This document shows, piece after piece, positions 26,105-38,544 of a stretch of 38,544 nucleotides of DNA. Positions within the stretch are counted from its first letter, which is position 1. Each line of letters opens with the position of its first letter. This DNA comes from a virus. Taxonomy: Duplodnaviria > Caudoviricetes. The translations under genes were made by a program, and so were the position numbers. The notes under the pieces were generated by a model. The model had not been told where the DNA came from. It saw only the letters and a program-made list of their open reading frames with translations, and searched no databases. The DNA lies in the IMG/VR virus record IMGVR_UViG_3300020045_015905, positions 1 to 38,544 of that record; one strand, 5' to 3'.

Positions 26105-26318
26105 AGGTTCCATTGATTAGATCTTCTTTGGTGAGTTTTTTCTTATCTTCTCCTTGGGTGGTTTTCATGAACTTGATGTGTTTGCAGTCCACCGGGAAGT
26201 GTTTAGCGGCCATACAGGTGCATGACCATTGTTTTGTTTCTATGTCCTGAGAGAGTTCGTATTGTTGATTTGGGTTTGACTCTGATTCAACAAGGGCTGA
26301 GGTGATTTTAAATTTCAT
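26085..26318 (-). CDS. SWIM zinc-finger protein
   Basis: VESES.P...Y......WSCTC.......CKHI; start set at MKFKI. Confidence 0.8.
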   Translation of the reverse strand: MKFKITSALVESESNPNQQYELSQDIETKQWSCTCMAAKHFPVDCKHIKFMKTTQGEDKKKLTKEDLINGTYATPQE

Positions 26319-27309
26319 AGAGCTTATTAAAAATATATTGTACCACATTTACAGTGACAGCGTTCCCAAGGCATTTATATCGTTGGGTGTCACTCAATCC
26401 TTCTGTCCAATTATCTGGGAAGCCTTGCAATCGTTCGCATTCTTTTGGGGTCAGGCGACGGATCCGAGAGTTTTGCATTATTCCTCCCGTGTTTACCGTA
26501 TCAACCGTGAAAGAATATTCTCCTTGGAAGTTTTTTTGATTTCTGTCTAAAAATTTTAGAGGAACTGCATACAATCCAGTTTTTGCCCCAGCTCCTCCGC
26601 CAAGAGAGGAAAGAGTTATCGCAAGACCGTCTGGGTTATACACTCTCATTCCTTGAGCTCCTCCAATTATTTGCTTGATGTAGGTGCCGTCCGCGTCCAT
26701 TGAACCTTTTGCTCTTAAAGTTCCACTATATTTGGCTTGTGGCCGTCTTTCTTTTGATTCATTCTCTCCACAAGATAATTGGTCATTTTCTCTGAGAGGA
26801 AATACCTCTGGTCTGGGTTGTCCTCTAAGATGTCCGATAATGAACACTCTTTCCCTATTTTGGGGGACGCCGAAATTCTTGCTGTTAAGCACTTGCCATT
26901 GGAGGTCATACCCCAATTCATCAAGCGTGGAGATGATGGTTTTGAAAGTTCTTCCATTCTCATGAGATAAAAGCCCTTTGACGTTTTCCAGTAGAAACAA
27001 TTTTGGTTTTCTATCAGAGAGTATCCTTGCGATTTCAAAAAATAAAGTCCCTCGGGTGTCATCAAATCCTTTACGTTTTCCAGCGATACTGAACGCTTGG
27101 CATGGGAATCCTCCAACAAGGACATCGAAGTCTGGAAGATCGCTGGTGGCAATTTTGGTGATGTCTCCATAATTTTTGTGCGTTGGAAAATGTTTTTGAT
27201 AAACTTGAATAGCATATTTATTTATTTCTGAGTAACCTACGCATTCACCAAAAGAATCAATACCTTGTTCAAAGCCACCAATCCCAGAAAATACAGAAAA
27301 GTACTTCAT
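26308..27309 (-). CDS. dcm: DNA (cytosine-5) methyltransferase
   Basis: FSGIGG (I), GFPCQ (IV), ENVKG (VI), QNRERVF (VIII), RRLTPKECERLQGFP (IX), GNAV (X). Confidence 0.95.
   Translation of the reverse strand: MKYFSVFSGIGGFEQGIDSFGECVGYSEINKYAIQVYQKHFPTHKNYGDITKIATSDLPDFDVLVGGFPCQAFSIAGKRKGFDDTRGTLFFEIARILSDRKPKLFLLENVKGLLSHENGRTFKTIISTLDELGYDLQWQVLNSKNFGVPQNRERVFIIGHLRGQPRPEVFPLRENDQLSCGENESKERRPQAKYSGTLRAKGSMDADGTYIKQIIGGAQGMRVYNPDGLAITLSSLGGGAGAKTGLYAVPLKFLDRNQKNFQGEYSFTVDTVNTGGIMQNSRIRRLTPKECERLQGFPDNWTEGLSDTQRYKCLGNAVTVNVVQYIFNKLYEI
26715..27170 (-). CDS. Nested out-of-frame beta-type polypeptide of the C5 methyltransferase (M.EcoHK31I-beta-like)
   Basis: Stop-free alternative frame wholly inside dcm with S.EDSHAK, WKTS, WGMTSNG and ECSLSDILED...RYFLS; start could be 27170 or 27215. 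Confidence 0.7.
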   Translation of the reverse strand: METSPKLPPAIFQTSMSLLEDSHAKRSVSLENVKDLMTPEGLYFLKSQGYSLIENQNCFYWKTSKGFYLMRMEELSKPSSPRLMNWGMTSNGKCLTARISASPKIGKECSLSDILEDNPDQRYFLSEKMTNYLVERMNQKKDGHKPNIVEL

Positions 27310-27449
27310 AAAGGTTTTTGGTTAGCTTTTTTCGCTTGATTTTCTTTCTGGTGAAAGAAGCAGACAGCACGGAGGCGTTGATTCCCGGATTTATTTCTCC
27401 CACGAGATTGACGGTTTCTTGTACACCCTTCTACTTTGCAAATTGGCAT
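27306..27449 (-). CDS. Small Cys/His zinc-binding protein
   Basis: MPICKVEGC...CFFH; starts 1 nt after the upstream stop, ATGA overlap with dcm. Confidence 0.6.
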   Translation of the reverse strand: MPICKVEGCTRNRQSRGRNKSGNQRLRAVCFFHQKENQAKKANQKPL

Positions 27450-27450
27450 A

Positions 27451-28671
27451 TCATAATTTTTTAGCAATTTTTCCTGTATATTTTTCCCAACGGGCGATGA
27501 TGACATCAACATATTTGGGGTCAAGTTCCATTCCATAGCATACTCTTTCAGCTTTCTCACAAGCGATGAGTGTGGTCCCAGACCCAAGAAAAAGATCGAG
27601 TACGATATCCTGTGGTTCAGAGCTATTTTTAATGGCTTTCAAACAGAGTTCGACAGGTTTCATGGTTGGGTGCTCCTTGCTCACAGTGGGCCGTTTTATT
27701 CGCCAGACGTCCGTTTGTTTCCTGTCCGCATGCCACTTATGAGAATCGCCTTCTTTCCACCCATACAAAATTGGGGTGCCTTCTTCTTCAGGTTCAGACT
27801 CCTCGTCCGAATTGAGCACCATAATCGGCTCAAATTGACTATGATAATCACCGCGCGACATAACGAATCTATCTTTGACCCAGATAATAACCTTGGACCA
27901 ATGCCCCCCCCCTCGGTTAAACGAGTCTTGAGTGGTTCCCCATTCTTTCGAGGACATGCAAATATACAGAGCACCATTGCAGAAAGTTAAAAGATTCACA
28001 ACGAAACCATCAACAAATTCTTTCCATTTTTCAGTATTCAATTTATCATTTTTGATTTTTCTTTTTTCACTATAATCTACATTGTAAGGCGGATCAGTAA
28101 AAACCATGTTTGCTTTCTTTCCATCCAGAAGTCTATGAACAGAGTCGTAGTCAGTACTGTCGCCACACATAATCCGGTGATTCCCAAGCTGGTAAATTTC
28201 TCCGAGCTTCGAATTTGGAATCTCAGGGATTCCAGGCACAATATCATCCGCTTCATCCGAAGAAAGAATCAAGTCCTTTTCAAACCCAGTGAGGCTTACA
28301 CTCACACCAGCAAGGTCGAGATCAAAAAGTTCCTCAGTTACCAGCTTCATATCCCATTCACTCTCGTTGAGCTTATTATCCGCAAGGCGATAGGCTTTTT
28401 CCTGTTCAGGCGTCATCTCACGAGTGTCTGGGCCACCCTGAAGCGTTTGACCTGAGTCGTTGATTATCCAGATTGGTTGTAAAATTTCTTTGTTTTGGAG
28501 CCAAGTCTCATACCGGCCGTGACCGACGATGATCACACCTTCTTTATTCACGAGAACTGGCTGTCTCCAACCCACTTCTTTGACGATTTCACAAAGGGCG
28601 TCGATTTGTTTTTGAGTGTGTTTTTTAGCATTTTTCTCGTAGGGTGAGATTACTACATGAGAAATCATCAT
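27451..28671 (-). CDS. ParB-like domain fused to a DNA N6-adenine/N4-cytosine methyltransferase
   Basis: PY..NAK.H, IIVGHGR, YRLADNKLNE; FTDPPYN, HPTMKPV, DLFLGSGTT, ELDPKY. Confidence 0.93.
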   Translation of the reverse strand: MMISHVVISPYEKNAKKHTQKQIDALCEIVKEVGWRQPVLVNKEGVIIVGHGRYETWLQNKEILQPIWIINDSGQTLQGGPDTREMTPEQEKAYRLADNKLNESEWDMKLVTEELFDLDLAGVSVSLTGFEKDLILSSDEADDIVPGIPEIPNSKLGEIYQLGNHRIMCGDSTDYDSVHRLLDGKKANMVFTDPPYNVDYSEKRKIKNDKLNTEKWKEFVDGFVVNLLTFCNGALYICMSSKEWGTTQDSFNRGGGHWSKVIIWVKDRFVMSRGDYHSQFEPIMVLNSDEESEPEEEGTPILYGWKEGDSHKWHADRKQTDVWRIKRPTVSKEHPTMKPVELCLKAIKNSSEPQDIVLDLFLGSGTTLIACEKAERVCYGMELDPKYVDVIIARWEKYTGKIAKKL

Positions 28672-28884: not shown

Positions 28885-28924
28885 GGAATGTACTTATTAT
28901 AGCACATTCCCAGTGATTTGTTAA
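28885..28924 (-). promoter_or_regulatory. Sigma70 promoter with the -10 box inside an inverted repeat
   Basis: TTAACA(28924-28919)-17 nt-TATAAT(28901-28896) with extended TG; GGAATGT-N12-ACATTCC at 28885-28910. Confidence 0.7.
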
Positions 28925-29121
28925 TTATAAATTTGATCAAATTTTTCCTCAGACATGAAAGCAAAACGTATGCTGTCAATCAGTGCCAAAATCGGTGGTA
29001 TGAATGTCCAGAAAAAGAGGATATAAGCCACCCCACGACCCGGTTTATTGAGATAGAACCAATGAATACCGAGGCCACCAGTAAAGAACGCCAGCAAAAA
29101 TGCTACAAACTTATTTTTCAT
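28921..29121 (-). CDS. TM2 domain membrane protein
   Basis: KNKFVAFLLAFFTGGLGIHWFYL...G..YILFFWT.IP; start set at MKNKF. Confidence 0.9.
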   Translation of the reverse strand: MKNKFVAFLLAFFTGGLGIHWFYLNKPGRGVAYILFFWTFIPPILALIDSIRFAFMSEEKFDQIYN

Positions 29122-29141
29122 AATACATAATAAGATAAAAA

Positions 29142-29252
29142 TTAGATAAACTTTAAGATAAATATGGTTGCCCAGAACCAACAAAATGCGGCCAAGGCAA
29201 CGGTTGCCAACATCACCAAGAGAACGACAAGCCCTCTCAAGATAAAATTCAT
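29142..29252 (-). CDS. 36-aa single-pass membrane peptide
   Basis: MNFILRGLVVLLVMLATVALAAFCWFWATIFILKFI; ATGA overlap with the upstream stop. Confidence 0.55.
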   Translation of the reverse strand: MNFILRGLVVLLVMLATVALAAFCWFWATIFILKFI

Positions 29253-29659
29253 AGTACGTTATGATGAATGAATAAATTGATTTCTTCTTCTTTGGGTTTT
29301 CTTCTGCCAAATCGAAAAGAGACATTCATCATTTTCAGAAACTTTTTAAAATCGTAGTTCTTTTTGTTTGACTTTATTCTTACAGTGTCTCTATACCGTG
29401 GGAAAAGTATCAAAAGCACGAGAATACCAGTAACTGCATAGGCATGCAAAACATCCTTTGGACCTTCAGGGAAATTGAACTCAACTACCACAGAAAATGC
29501 ACCGTTGGGTTCAATAAACTTCTTTTTTCCTGCCTGAAGTATGATCGATTCACGCACCTTTTTGAAAAGCAATGCTTTTTTACTATCCGGCATTACCAAG
29601 AATTTATCAATTGTGAAGAACGGAATACGAAAATTATATTTATCGATTTTGAGTGGCAT
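29249..29659 (-). CDS. Hypothetical protein, possibly a degenerate RusA-like fold
   Basis: FSVVVEFNFPEGPKDV resembles the RusA core but lacks D-x-D-N; start set at MPLKI. Confidence 0.5.
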   Translation of the reverse strand: MPLKIDKYNFRIPFFTIDKFLVMPDSKKALLFKKVRESIILQAGKKKFIEPNGAFSVVVEFNFPEGPKDVLHAYAVTGILVLLILFPRYRDTVRIKSNKKNYDFKKFLKMMNVSFRFGRRKPKEEEINLFIHHNVL

Positions 29660-31746: not shown

Positions 31747-31958
31747 ACGTTTTCAAGTTCTTTTTTCGCAGCATTATAACCTTCCGAATAAGAAAAATTC
31801 ACCAGTTCTTTCAAATGTTCATGACACAAAGTAACTTCACACACATTATTGCAAACGCTTGCGTCACCTAAAATAGCACCACAAATAACTTCCATAGAAA
31901 ACATTTTATCCCATATCAACAGCCTTCCCCAGGAAAGCTGATGACATTGGCCGATCAT
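31743..31958 (-). CDS. Small Cys-containing hypothetical protein
   Basis: ICG.......CNN....LC.EH, Y.EGY..A C-terminus; true start may be a downstream ATG. Confidence 0.55.
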   Translation of the reverse strand: MIGQCHQLSWGRLLIWDKMFSMEVICGAILGDASVCNNVCEVTLCHEHLKELVNFSYSEGYNAAKKELENV

Positions 31959-32018
31959 ATTGCGTCTTAGTAAAAAAAATTACTAGGAAACGCTGTTGAT
32001 ATAGGAATTTATTAAAAT

Positions 32019-34820: not shown

Positions 34821-34893
34821 ATATTTGTATTTATGTTTGTTTTGAATAAATTTGTTTTTGCCTTATTTTGAGGCTTTATTTTATTATACTTAT

Positions 34894-34943
34894 ATTATAC
34901 CATACTTTTTGACTTTTGTCAAGTTTTTGGCAAGTTATCCACA
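34894..34943 (-). promoter_or_regulatory. Consensus sigma70 promoter with an adjacent DnaA box
   Basis: TTGACA(34922-34917)-17 nt-TATAAT(34899-34894) with extended TG; TTATCCACA at 34935-34943. Confidence 0.85.
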
Positions 34944-35095
34944 GGGGAGGTTTTTACCGAGGTAGAGACCCAGGTTCGGCTCTTTCCGAGCAATCTACCC
35001 ACCTCCCGGGTGGTATAACCAGCCTTATACAGCTCTTTTGCACTCATTTTGAGTGATTCCAGCCTCTCCCTCTTCGTTCGTCCTAGTTTAGGCAT
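34919..35095 (-). CDS. 58-aa helix-turn-helix regulator
   Basis: MPKLGRTKRERLESLKMSAKELYKAGYTTREVGRLLGKSRTWVSTSVKTSPVDNLPKT, translated by hand; lies between two promoters. Confidence 0.8.
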   Translation of the reverse strand: MPKLGRTKRERLESLKMSAKELYKAGYTTREVGRLLGKSRTWVSTSVKTSPVDNLPKT

Positions 35096-35122
35096 ATTCA
35101 GTGTTTATTTGATTATGCATGT

Positions 35123-35151
35123 ATTATACCATACTGTCAGACTTTTGTCAA
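35123..35151 (-). promoter_or_regulatory. Consensus sigma70 promoter, near-duplicate of 34894-34922
   Basis: TTGACA(35151-35146)-17 nt-TATAAT(35128-35123) with extended TG. Confidence 0.85.
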
Positions 35152-35159
35152 GTTTTAGA

Positions 35160-35229: not shown

Positions 35230-36510
35230 TTAGAAGCTAATTTTGTCCTGTAATTCACTCAAAACGTCCTCCATACGGAGGTTTGTACGGTCAAAATCGA
35301 TCTTAAAGTCCTGCCCTTTCTCACTATGGCGACTTTTTACTACCCGGCAACGAAGTTCACGGGCAATCTGGAAATTGGTCTGAAGCATTCCCTTGCCGAT
35401 TTTCTCCTCTTTTTCGTAGAGATACAGGGCAAGGTCGGCTTCATCGGCCAGAGCCTTGGCCCAGGCGACGTTTTCCACCTTGATTTTGCCCCCCTGAGAG
35501 GAAGCTTTGTCCACCTGGGCCGGTGTAAGCACAGGAATTTCATTAGTTAGAGCAAAATTTTTGAGGTTTTGAGCGATTGTTTTCATTTTTATGGTCTCAG
35601 ATTCCTTGCTTTTATCGGCCAGACGTTGCACGTAGTCGACCATAACGATGTCCACTTCCCCACTCAGCTTTCGATTGTAGGCCTCAGAAATGACGTCCTG
35701 TGAGGTTATTGACCCCCGGTGGACAACTGTGATGGGTAACGACTTAAAACGCTCCACAGTGCCCCTCAAATCAGTTTTAGCGAGCGTTCTGTTCTTAACT
35801 TCCATGGCGTTCACGTTCCCGTAAATAGAGACAAACTTATCATTGAGCTGGTTAGCGGTCATTTCCAAAGAGAAAAACAGGACTTTCTTCTTCATTTTGG
35901 CCATTTGAATAGCCATGTTCAAGAGCAATGTTGTTTTTCCCACGTTCGTATCAGCCATGATAAGGGCAAAATCTGAGGGAGTGATTCCACCAATGGCATT
36001 GTCGATGGTCCAGATTCCTGTTTTTATGAAGTTTGGAGGCAGATCATAATCCCGATACCAGTTTTCAATGAGATCAGGATTGGCCGTTGTTTCGTACGGG
36101 TTGCCCGTAGAGCTTTGAATCAGCAGATGTTTGAGGTCCCCAAGCACGGATGGGAGCTCTTCATCGTAAATCCTTTGCATTCCAATTTCGAGGCCTTGTA
36201 AAACCACCCGACGCAAATGTTTTTCTTTTAGAATTTTGGCGTGGTTTTTGATATTGAATGAGGTGGCCACAGAGTTGGCGAGTTCCACCAGGTACGAGCG
36301 TTTTATATCGGTATTTTTTTCCTCCAGGTATGCGGCCAAGGAAGTGAGGTCTGGCCGTTCGATTGCTTTCATGGCAGAGTAAATCACTTGGTGCCGGCTA
36401 TCATAGAAAACTTCAGGATTGATTGGCGCTTTAAATTTTGCCTCAGGGTCTTGAATGATCGCCCCCAGGTAGGCTTTCTCGGTTTCGATTGACGCAGGTA
36501 TTTCTCTCAT
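35230..36510 (-). CDS. dnaB: DnaB-like replicative helicase
   Basis: P.S.E.E.A.LG and FYD.RHQ.IY N-domain; Walker A ADTNVGKT, FFSLEM, VMVDYVQ, AQ, DAD, KSRH. Confidence 0.93.
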   Translation of the reverse strand: MREIPASIETEKAYLGAIIQDPEAKFKAPINPEVFYDSRHQVIYSAMKAIERPDLTSLAAYLEEKNTDIKRSYLVELANSVATSFNIKNHAKILKEKHLRRVVLQGLEIGMQRIYDEELPSVLGDLKHLLIQSSTGNPYETTANPDLIENWYRDYDLPPNFIKTGIWTIDNAIGGITPSDFALIMADTNVGKTTLLLNMAIQMAKMKKKVLFFSLEMTANQLNDKFVSIYGNVNAMEVKNRTLAKTDLRGTVERFKSLPITVVHRGSITSQDVISEAYNRKLSGEVDIVMVDYVQRLADKSKESETIKMKTIAQNLKNFALTNEIPVLTPAQVDKASSQGGKIKVENVAWAKALADEADLALYLYEKEEKIGKGMLQTNFQIARELRCRVVKSRHSEKGQDFKIDFDRTNLRMEDVLSELQDKISF

Positions 36511-37271
36511 ACTTCGATTTGTTCTTTCCAGCCTGGAATTTCATTCCAGCTTTCGGCGATAGTCGCTAATTTAATTTTTCCCCAGCCTTTAAAATCAGCA
36601 TAGGCCTTGGCCACGGTGATTCTCAATTTTATTTCTGCCTCGATTTTTTTAAAATCCTCCCCATAGTATTCTTTGGCACAAGTAACCATTTCCTCGATTG
36701 CACGCCGATATTTGAAAAAGAGATTTGATTTCGGAACATTGAACGTGTCAGCATAGTGCACAGCCACCGCCGTGATTACTTTGAGCGGAGTTTTTGACTT
36801 TGAAGCCGTTGGTTCTTTACGTTCACCAAGTTCATCAAGTTCAATTGTTGTTTCTTGATATTTTTTCATAGGTTTTTTGGTTTTTCTCTGTGGAGCGATA
36901 GCGACTTCACATAGAGATTTCTTCTTATTATTTAAATCCTTCTTACTTAGCAGTGCAGTTTTTGCACAGTGCAGTTTTTGCACTGTGGCTTTTTTTTGCG
37001 GTGTTGAGAAAAGTAAGTATTGAATCCTTCCAGTATTTTCTCGCTTGCTTTCAAGGTATCCTGCTGCGATAAGTTCCCGGATAGCTTTACGAATAACGAA
37101 AATCCCCTCAGTGCCATTTTTAGCAATTCTATCGCAAGCAAATTGCCACCCATCCGGCTTTGAAGCAAGGTGAGAATAAACCCCTTTTGCTGTCCAACTT
37201 AGATTTTTATCATCCAATATTTTGTTTGGTATCACACTGAACGCAAAATCTACTTTTTTAAAGTTACCCAT
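36507..37271 (-). CDS. Phage replication initiator (N-terminal HTH, lambda O-like organisation)
   Basis: FSVIPN.IL.D..LSW.AKGVY..L.S.PDGW...IRELI.AGYL; ATGA-coupled to dnaB; internal repeats. Confidence 0.85.
   Translation of the reverse strand: MGNFKKVDFAFSVIPNKILDDKNLSWTAKGVYSHLASKPDGWQFACDRIAKNGTEGIFVIRKAIRELIAAGYLESKRENTGRIQYLLFSTPQKKATVQKLHCAKTALLSKKDLNNKKKSLCEVAIAPQRKTKKPMKKYQETTIELDELGERKEPTASKSKTPLKVITAVAVHYADTFNVPKSNLFFKYRRAIEEMVTCAKEYYGEDFKKIEAEIKLRITVAKAYADFKGWGKIKLATIAESWNEIPGWKEQIEV
36917..36987. repeat. Candidate replication origin inside the initiator gene
   Basis: Perfect tandem 16-mer CAGTGCAGTTTTTGCA at 36951-36966 and 36967-36982, next to an AT-rich tract at about 36917-36950. 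Confidence 0.7.
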
Positions 37272-37283
37272 AAAATTGACAAT

Positions 37284-37372
37284 AAAAAAAACTCCTTGAG
37301 TCTGGACTTGCTTTGGCTAATCACAGCCAAGGGGTGCGTCACCGCAAGCCCAGTCCAGACTTAAAGAGTTTT
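37284..37372 (-). ncRNA. P4 CI / P1 C4-like antisense RNA candidate
   Basis: About 20-bp stalk, 5-nt bulge, minor and major hairpins, U8 tail; UGUGAUUA at the major loop is complementary to upstream UAAUCACA (37387-37380). Confidence 0.65.
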
Positions 37373-37400
37373 AAAATTGTGTGATTATTTAAGCAATTGA

Positions 37401-37429
37401 ATTATATCATAATTACCTAGAAAAAGCAA
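37401..37429 (-). promoter_or_regulatory. Sigma70 promoter for the replication operon
   Basis: TTGCTT(37429-37424)-17 nt-TATAAT(37406-37401) with extended TG. Confidence 0.8.
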
Positions 37430-37505
37430 GAACTGGACACCGAGCCGTAGCCAAGTTGAGCGTCCTTGCTTTTCCCATCCTCAGGTTTGAGAAGGTAAGT
37501 TTGAG
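37420..37505 (-). ncRNA. Candidate small structured RNA / attenuator
   Basis: CUCA-aacc-UGAG hairpin, then AAAAGCAAG...CUUGCUUUU enclosing a C(UACG)G-capped stem; no ORF. Confidence 0.45.
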
Positions 37506-37510
37506 GGGTA

Positions 37511-37539
37511 ATTATACCATTTTTAAAGAACTTTGCCAA
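37511..37539 (-). promoter_or_regulatory. Sigma70 promoter
   Basis: TTGGCA(37539-37534)-17 nt-TATAAT(37516-37511) with extended TG. Confidence 0.75.
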
Positions 37540-37545
37540 GTCCTA

Positions 37546-38490
37546 TTACTTTTTCTTTTGTAAAACCACCGTTGCTTGACGAACCAACTCAAGGGCTGAT
37601 TGCAAAATCAGATTTGCTTCATCAGTCTTGAGTTTTGGAACTTCCACCTCTGCCAATTTCTTTGCATAGGCAACGAGCTTGTCTCGATCTGGTGCCATTT
37701 CTGCCTGTCTTTTTTCCTCAAGCTCTTTGTCTTTTTGTTCATCTAATTTTCGTTGTTGCTCTCTTTTTTCAGCCTCTAATTTTGCCCTTGCCTCTGCTTC
37801 TTTTTCTGCTTTTGCTTTGGCTTCGGCTAGGATTTTATTTTGTTTTTTGCGTTCCTTTTCACGTTCTAACTCCATTGCCTCTGCTTCTTTTTTGAGTCTC
37901 TCATTTTCAATTCGCATTTCCTCTCTTGCGATAGCTTCCTTTTTTTCATTTTCAATTCTTGCAATTTCAGCCTCTTCCTCTGCTTTTTTTCTTGCCTCAA
38001 ATGCAAACTTTGAATTTTCAAGCAACTGTGCAAAACCACTCTCAGTCATATTTTTTAAATCGTAACACGAGACGTCGTTGACATATTGTGATAATGCTTC
38101 GACTCTTTCCTGTTTGATTTTTTCCAGTTTTTCTGCTTCGAGAAGTTCAAAATGCTTTTCAATTTTTTCAAGAGTTCCCTCTTTTTCAATTGCTGCAAAT
38201 TCTTGTGCATTTTTCCAAGCGTCCACTAATCTTCCACCTGCCAGATAATAGGCCTTTGCTTTCTTGTGGATATCTTTGGTATCAGTTCTCACTCTCACAA
38301 GTTTCAAACGTAATTCTCGTGCTTTTGCACAAACCTCTGGGCTGATGGATTCCTTGACGATTTCATTATATTCATTTTCCAGCTCTGTCATTTTTTCAAG
38401 CATTGGAATGAAAACCGATTGGATTTGTTCAGCTTCTTTTTTCTCGATCCCATATTCCTGTGGATCAAGAATTATTAAAGTTTTATCCAT
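37546..38490 (-). CDS. Coiled-coil phage early protein
   Basis: ARELRLKLVRVRT....HKK.K..YL..GR.VD N-domain, long E/K/A/R coiled coil, APDRDKL C-terminus. Confidence 0.8.
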   Translation of the reverse strand: MDKTLIILDPQEYGIEKKEAEQIQSVFIPMLEKMTELENEYNEIVKESISPEVCAKARELRLKLVRVRTDTKDIHKKAKAYYLAGGRLVDAWKNAQEFAAIEKEGTLEKIEKHFELLEAEKLEKIKQERVEALSQYVNDVSCYDLKNMTESGFAQLLENSKFAFEARKKAEEEAEIARIENEKKEAIAREEMRIENERLKKEAEAMELEREKERKKQNKILAEAKAKAEKEAEARAKLEAEKREQQRKLDEQKDKELEEKRQAEMAPDRDKLVAYAKKLAEVEVPKLKTDEANLILQSALELVRQATVVLQKKK

Positions 38491-38499
38491 ATAAAATTA

Positions 38500-38544
38500 T
38501 TATGTATTTGAATAACGTTTTTTACACAGCATGATCACTTCCTC
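38500..38544 (-). CDS. C-terminal fragment of a gene entering from the right edge
   Basis: Reads EEVIMLCKKRYSNT-stop, ending 9 nt before the next ATG. Confidence 0.5.
   Translation of the reverse strand, partial: EEVIMLCKKRYSNT

Follow-up and report, generated by a model that had tools for sequence, protein, structure and literature searches.

The replication operon of this phage is preceded by a structured RNA element in which the loop of the major hairpin and the junction that follows it are complementary to a two-part target lying upstream in the same leader. The element is real, conserved and uncatalogued in Rfam. Since the relatives keep the match in wholly different letters, it is likely a protein-free switch over the replication genes. 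The leader pairing is very probably functional and regulates the operon, and this is much more certain than either the direction of the regulation or the trans step. The best model, to which we assign a probability of about 0.55, is an attenuator that represses itself: copies of the RNA that have already terminated would pair in trans with the leader of a nascent transcript, favour the stalk and shut off the operon.

Genomic position and architecture of the element

The window, i.e. the whole phage record of 38,544 bases, was estimated to be 100% complete, and all its identified genes lie on the minus strand. No terminal repeat was found in the record; the open reading frame (ORF) at its left end (1-547) can continue at the right end (38490-38544) with a stop after six codons, consistent with a circularly permuted complete genome. 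The element is located between a 314-aa gene without known family on one side and, on the other, the gene of a 254-aa replication-initiator-like HTH protein (36507-37271, minus strand), which matched PHROG 4707, replication initiation protein, with E 4.8e-12 and Pfam HTH_36 below the cut-off (E 3.6e-4). The stop of the initiator gene overlaps the start of the gene for a 426-aa DnaB-like replicative helicase (35230-36510, minus strand; PHROG 19, E 1.8e-71; Pfam DnaB and DnaB_C). The initiator gene also contains a partly palindromic 17-base direct repeat (36951-36983, minus strand), whose two copies show a 16-nt spacing and are possible origin iterons.

The letters and distances quoted for the element in the initial annotation were all confirmed, on the minus strand. 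The 92-nt fold showed a free energy of -44.3 kcal/mol and a z value of -7.1, and none of 200 shuffled sequences was as stable. The predicted structure is three-armed: a 20-bp stalk (stem P1) encloses a minor hairpin, whose loop is GUGA, and a major hairpin, and the junction between the latter and the stalk is unpaired. The stalk spans 37372-37288 on the minus strand, its 5' arm (37352-37372) being assigned from the fold and from covariation and its 3' arm (37288-37308) from the fold. Between the arms lie, on the same strand, the minor hairpin (stem P2, 37331-37351), the major hairpin (stem P3, 37313-37330), whose loop is spanned by the anti-a segment TGTGATTA (37325-37318), and the junction J3/1 (37308-37313), which bears the anti-b segment AAGCAA; both segments were assigned from the fold and from the leader match. 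A U8 tract (37284-37291, minus strand), the putative termination point, ends 12 nt ahead of the initiator ATG (37271). The inner part had been described as a UUGC/GCAA stem with a GGUG-acg-CACC hairpin; the minimum free energy fold has GGG/CCC closing UGCG-GUGA-CGCA instead and leaves AGCA of the junction single-stranded, as do the folds of the relatives. This correction matters because the junction is the second recognition segment. The terminator scan did not list the element, because its loop exceeds the size considered by that scan.

The leader sequence TTGCTT-AAA-TAATCACA (37396-37380) pairs with TGTGATTA-GCCA-AAGCAA (37325-37308) in two collinear antiparallel helices comprising 14/14 Watson-Crick pairs. 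Target b (TTGCTT, 37391-37396, minus strand) is thereby matched by the junction (37313-37308), a second half of the complementarity that had previously been missed, and target a (TAATCACA, 37380-37387, minus strand), 3 nt past target b, is matched by the loop. The latter was already described as the exact complement of a leader 8-mer, which we could verify: throughout the genome, the 8-mer occurs only as the target and as its complement. When both strands were scanned strictly, the transcribed strand contained a single copy of the 14/14 bipartite site, with the runner-up at 12/14, and the window genome had no further site that might serve as a second, downstream target. Free energy alone does not single out the cognate site, which 121 of 19,262 genome windows equalled in binding to the exposed segment; this ranking was not used as a control, because G-U pairs and stem bases count in it. 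The stalk, the complementarity of loop and junction to the leader and the position of these parts are established by the sequence and by covariation.

The promoter proposed for the leader, TTGCTT-17-TGaTATAAT (promoter P2, 37401-37429, minus strand), is present as written, with TTGCTT at 37429-37424 and, 17 nt on, TG-a-TATAAT at 37409-37401, but its -35 hexamer fits just 3/6 consensus bases and belongs to the 3' arm of an upstream hairpin. Promoter P2 is absent from the list of the consensus scan, which places a better-scoring site upstream (promoter P1, TTGGCA-17-TG-n-TATAAT, 37511-37539, minus strand, 11/12 matches), the third member of repeat family D7. If transcription began 7 nt past promoter P2, the RNA would include just 4/6 bases of target b. 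The upstream hairpin (hairpin 1, 37418-37477, minus strand) was predicted by folding to have 16-17 bp and a short U run, with -28.4 kcal/mol and z -3.1 on the minus strand versus z -0.2 on the plus strand, and is crossed by a 21-codon ORF (37478-37413) read from the sequence. Hairpin 1 and the element share four words of 6-8 bases (AAAGCAAG, CTTGGCT, CAAGGA and GTCCAG), a degree of sharing equalled by 20 of about 3000 random pieces, and hairpin 1 may be a relic copy of the element or a second partner for the junction. Its reading as a second element of the same family was rejected by eye, its own-leader match being only 4 nt.

Conservation of the leader match in related phages

Relatives were collected with family-specific DnaB patterns, which returned 7, 5 and 16 loci. 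Duplicates, loci with other helicases and contigs lacking upstream DNA were left out of this discovery set, the last including L302, L307 and one of the closest relatives, L293 (93% DnaB identity); another of these, P0002 (54% initiator), was also outside the comparison. In three loci with other helicases (L287, L296, L303) the element was not found. Viral contigs scanned with a stem-word pattern yielded 119 loci with no relatives among them, locus searches by single protein gave no match and one family pattern returned 0 matches. An alignment of 23 DnaB sequences was rejected as a search source: its patterns were generic, and the helicases only 22-33% identical. Only helicases less than 30% identical were present among the 15 matches listed for INPHARED phages. 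An independent set was obtained with the motif of a different initiator family, which yielded 83 viral loci containing 32 distinct true initiators; two were dropped as repeats of discovery loci, and the remaining 30, together with the window and six discovery-set copies, made up 37 upstream regions.

The element is present in all five distinct relatives of the DnaB family that include upstream DNA, with six copies in total, ahead of an initiator-type or small gene. The same geometry is filled with different letters in each lineage, as illustrated by L281, where TGTCCA-AAA-TCTTAC faces GTAAGA-GGAG-TGGACA, and by L284, where GCTCAA-AAA-GAATGAAA faces TTTCATTC-GGCA-TTGAGC. In a 7x7 duplex swap matrix the own leader was the best partner in 7/7 rows and 6/7 columns. 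A fixed stalk filter was passed by 26 of the 37 upstream regions, the other 11 having no stalk; own-leader matches of at least 13 bases occurred in 10/26 stalks versus 6/650 swapped pairs, and the observed sum of matches was reached by none of 200,000 permutations over the 26 stalks. For the 19 elements outside the discovery set, 7 matched over at least 11 bases, versus 21/342 swapped pairs (p=2.5e-4). Half of the filtered stalks (13/26) score below 11, the filter admitting ordinary folds too.

A covariance model was built from five three-armed relatives, with the window left out. In a search of 432 kb, its top match apart from the training set and its duplicate was the window, with 41.8 bits and a rough E of 4.4e-6, and L284, L295A and L282 came next; in a negative control of 595 kb from 80 unrelated DnaB phage loci the model returned one match, with E 0.55. 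Two-armed variants escape detection by this model. The seven-row model alignment showed changes on both sides in 37 of 43 named pairs, and within the leader helices in 3/5 leader:junction and 4/4 leader:loop pairs; it was fitted to a nested structure and shifts the junction of the window and of L380 by one column.

These results bear on the possibility that the element is a plain terminator, or a hairpin occluding the initiator start, whose leader match arose by chance. A long stalk followed by U8 is what such a hairpin would present, and some related stalks have no clear match (9 in L334, 6 in L354, 4 in L317), but the swap and permutation controls contradict this explanation, as do the both-side changes in the leader helices and the fixed 3-nt/4-nt geometry in most three-armed members. 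The initial annotation had named loss of the loop-leader complementarity in relatives as the outcome pointing to a plain terminator; the relatives keep it with compensatory changes, and this explanation is therefore extremely improbable.

Some related loci depart from the common arrangement. L295 (3769-4281, minus strand) carries tandem elements with different a/b codes, the first of which precedes a 54-aa remnant of one initiator family while a different initiator gene follows further on; this suggests that a control-plus-initiator module was replaced. Two-armed variants with one large apical loop were observed in L378 (2805-2928, plus strand), L359 (2804-2928, plus strand), L381 (3106-3234, minus strand) and L310 (2808-2925, plus strand). 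L378 and L381 have a single 11-base match, anti-b stands ahead of anti-a in L378 and L359 as judged by eye, and the target of L310 covers an SD-like GAGG.

Leader translation, folding and the proposed mechanism

In the relatives the target covers or abuts an AUG, with a -10 box about 4-23 nt before it, and this codon opens a leader ORF. In a hand-picked set of 18 elements the ORF remained open through the last loop in 14 cases; the other frames did so in 3/36, and shuffling gave an expectation of 3.9. The encoded peptides, of 25-39 codons, are mutually unlike, and therefore the act of translation is likely the point. The window is one of the four exceptions: target b begins with TTG where the relatives have the AUG, and the positional counterpart of their ORF is the 3-codon mini-ORF TTG-CTT-AAA-TAA (37385-37396, minus strand), which ends at codon 4; nine codons further on, the frame meets another stop. 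Its translation is doubtful. L382 shows the same 4-nt gap between -10 box and start codon as the window and has a 7-codon ORF.

Such leaders might work by translation only, with termination not involved: the stalk base would occlude the initiator start in a host without Shine-Dalgarno (SD) sequences, leader-ORF translation would open this start and couple to the initiator, and loop and junction would block the leader start, following the logic of R1 tap/CopA and the I-complex rep leaders. This is in line with the stalk ending 0-18 nt from the initiator ATG in elements scoring at least 11, with leader stops lying 5-10 nt before the next ATG, or overlapping it, in 9 of the 14 long ORFs, and with the SD-like motif found at only 2 of the 45 gene starts of the window, all 45 being listed as ATG. 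Against it, most strong elements in the relatives end with T-runs of 5-8 (U-runs in the RNA) and the window has no ORF through the stalk; the silence of the terminator scan cuts both ways, given the loop size. We consider purely translational control improbable.

Growing transcripts were folded at equilibrium. When the transcript ends just after anti-b, the cis leader:loop and leader:junction helices were predicted at 0.59-1.0 in all 13 strong elements, and they were lost once the 3' arm appeared. The main rival to our model builds on this result: a cis-only co-transcriptional switch, in which the leader pairs with loop and junction of the same molecule and no trans RNA takes part. The pairing would act as a kinetic trap or pseudoknot competing with ribosome loading and stalk closure, and would set a fixed or growth-dependent read-through. 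A single target does exist and the observed covariation is equally expected in cis, but in the window the helix is gone within 4-8 further bases at equilibrium. Moreover, the finished RNA would expose loop, junction and leader, making pairing in trans hard to avoid once the RNA is abundant, and the lineage-specific a/b letters would suit self-recognition. Overall, we regard a switch acting solely in cis as rather unlikely.

In the finished fold the target lies 0-14 nt from the stalk base and the loop 26-35 bp up the stalk, a rough geometrical estimate of reach, as the folding program cannot show pseudoknots. The leader would then be too short to reach its own loop, leaving loop and junction free for other molecules. 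The terminated RNA carries its own target and therefore, unless processed, would tend to pair with its siblings. Head-to-tail dimers of finished short RNAs, leader to loop, or their removal, might thus serve as the copy-number sensor. This idea benefits from the unprocessed RNA bearing both target and anti-target while its finished fold seems to put pairing in cis beyond reach, but dimers of terminated RNAs would have no direct route to the control of new transcripts except titration, which makes this reading very unlikely.

In the self-repressing attenuator that we favour, the free leader is predicted to pair in cis with loop and junction right after anti-b has been made, delaying the stalk and leaving the operon on. 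The same outcome would also be reached in most relatives by ribosomes translating the leader ORF, which would prevent the stalk from closing and arrive at the initiator start. In the window, whose ORF is closed at codon 4, it would be the cis intermediate and not translation that keeps the operon on. The short RNA, with its stalk formed, would build up with genome copy number and mask the 5' end or the start codon of nascent transcripts; its binding would block the cis intermediate and ribosome loading and let the stalk close. Transcription would then stop at the U-tract, or the initiator start would be occluded, and the operon would be off. Copy number would thereby come under negative feedback, in a code specific to each lineage, and the a/b letters would define self and non-self groups, for copy control or for the limitation of superinfection. 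Trans action, termination and immunity are putative parts of this model.

Relation to known regulatory RNAs, host and significance

The element had been assigned to the antisense RNAs of the CI/C4 type, and CI/C4-type logic is indeed the best reading: it has a stalk and two hairpins, its recognition segments lie in the loop of the major hairpin and in the junction after it, and the target complementary to them (seqA; a1/b1) precedes them in their own leader. It works like CI/C4 but, with neither an Rfam match nor a second target downstream, is not a member of the C4/CI family. A search with the Rfam C4 model gave no C4 match in the window; the Rfam scan returned two unrelated chance matches at E<=5 in the window and four unrelated matches at E<=10 in nine related loci. 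Where a second target (seqC; a2/b2) would be expected, the first post-stalk window scored 4-10 in 26/26 elements, and later windows scored up to 14 at no fixed place. RCC after the partner of GG[A/T] is the criterion for RNase P processing; no conserved signature of this kind (GGW start of P1) was seen in the 26 stalks, paired GG[A/T] occurring at scattered depths in 15/26 and never with RCC after its partner.

C4 of phages P1 and P7 controls the icd-ant antirepressor operon, whereas the element precedes initiator and DnaB genes. Like C4, the element owes its specificity to lineage-specific letters and would be made from the transcript under its control; unlike C4, it has one upstream target only, a U-tract end at the initiator start and no conserved GGW processing start. 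As far as the consulted part of PMC5320573 describes it, C4 (Rfam RF01695, c4-a1b1 targets) has three stems P1-P3, single-stranded recognition segments a' and b' in its loops and RNase P processing at GGW, and the same three stems and two segments are found here, while the C4 rows of the alignment excerpt from the supplement of PMC2864571 show a stalk, two hairpins and an unpaired junction.

Compared with P4 CI, the element differs in the placing of its target, which covers or abuts a start codon; in 14/18 members the leader ORF that begins there extends through the RNA itself. The satellite phage P4 integrates, whereas six-frame family searches found no tyrosine integrase in any of 10 records, five of them at least 90% complete: the window and four relatives, in which serine resolvases and S24 repressor peptidases were equally absent, and five further relatives. 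According to PMC4825925, P4 CI is processed from its own leader and pairs with seqA upstream and seqC downstream, both of which P4 needs along with the processing of CI, causing premature termination before the replication genes; the element resembles it as an own-leader RNA with leader pairing and replication genes downstream, and differs in having no downstream site. The same paper describes IsrK of Gifsy-1, in which a short terminated form of the RNA acts in trans on the read-through form, the longer product of that locus; unlike IsrK, which activates orf45-anrP translation, the element has different downstream genes and no Rfam match.

In plasmid R1, as reported in the portion of PMC10724649 considered, RNA-RNA pairing controls the replication initiator by blocking a leader peptide, and pairing at a replication initiator is shared by R1 (CopA/tap-repA), by the I-complex plasmids (RNAI/SLI) and by the element. 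In those systems the countertranscript comes from the opposite strand, whereas here the complementary segments share one strand; the only plus-strand promoter site that the consensus scan found in 35500-38544 (37487-37515) faces away from the element. An R1-type leader ORF coupled to Rep would correspond to the frame open through the stalk in 14/18 members and closed at codon 4 in the window. The element is undescribed in the literature searched, the supplements of PMC5737381 and PMC10690425 being places that could hold the motif. In the portion of the PMC10690425 supplements that was searched, the row found lies ahead of DnaB genes and HTH_36 does not appear; the accessible parts of PMC12360218 and PMC10746230 contain nothing further on the element.

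The phage had been annotated as having no integrase and no obvious CI protein, and none was found in the window. It encodes, however, a 58-aa HTH protein (34865-35156, minus strand) with a weak match to a repressor family (PHROG 6223, E 4.8e-4; Pfam HTH_23 below the cut-off), and because of this match the phage is not demonstrably free of protein repressors. Nearly identical promoter-like sites flank the gene on both sides, their -35 boxes being covered by an inverted repeat (TTGAC-AAAA-GTCAA at one site), and the gene possibly encodes an autoregulated Cro-like repressor. Further minus-strand genes, within 2184-2513, 26308-28671 and 28921-29325, encode a pyrimidine-dimer DNA glycosylase (Pfam E 1.3e-10), two DNA methyltransferases, one with a ParB-like N-terminus, and a TM2-domain protein. 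An inverted repeat at 31909-32006, with 27-nt arms that are 81% complementary and 44 nt between them, overlaps the start of a 71-aa gene at 31958.

SD-poor gene starts fit CPR or Bacteroidota hosts. The scarcity of SD-like motifs in the window is compatible with the earlier description as a probable CPR phage, but the initiator motif occurred in 0/401 genomes sampled from the phylum of a Parcubacteria-labelled MAG. The covariance model of the RNA found no match in two CPR-labelled MAGs. A CPR host for the phage is thus unproven.

We tentatively suggest that the elements might form a widespread, uncatalogued class of one-piece RNA autorepressors, providing copy-number and self-recognition control to non-integrating phages of SD-less, possibly CPR, hosts, with target, leader ORF, antisense segments and terminator contained within about 125 bases. 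If so, these phages would need neither integrase nor CI to be maintained as episomes at low copy, every lineage would use a code of 12-17 bases of its own, and the window would be a variant working without leader translation. RNA control of the CI/C4 type would extend from Proteobacterial phages to an unrelated group of phages from the environment that use different initiator families, and would be more compact there, with one target, a start-codon mask suited to SD-less hosts and a terminator-like end at the initiator. The natural a/b alleles would provide a ready set of orthogonal RNA switches for reporters, and the element opens to test how phages lacking an integrase or a CI-type repressor restrain their replication or exclude their kin.
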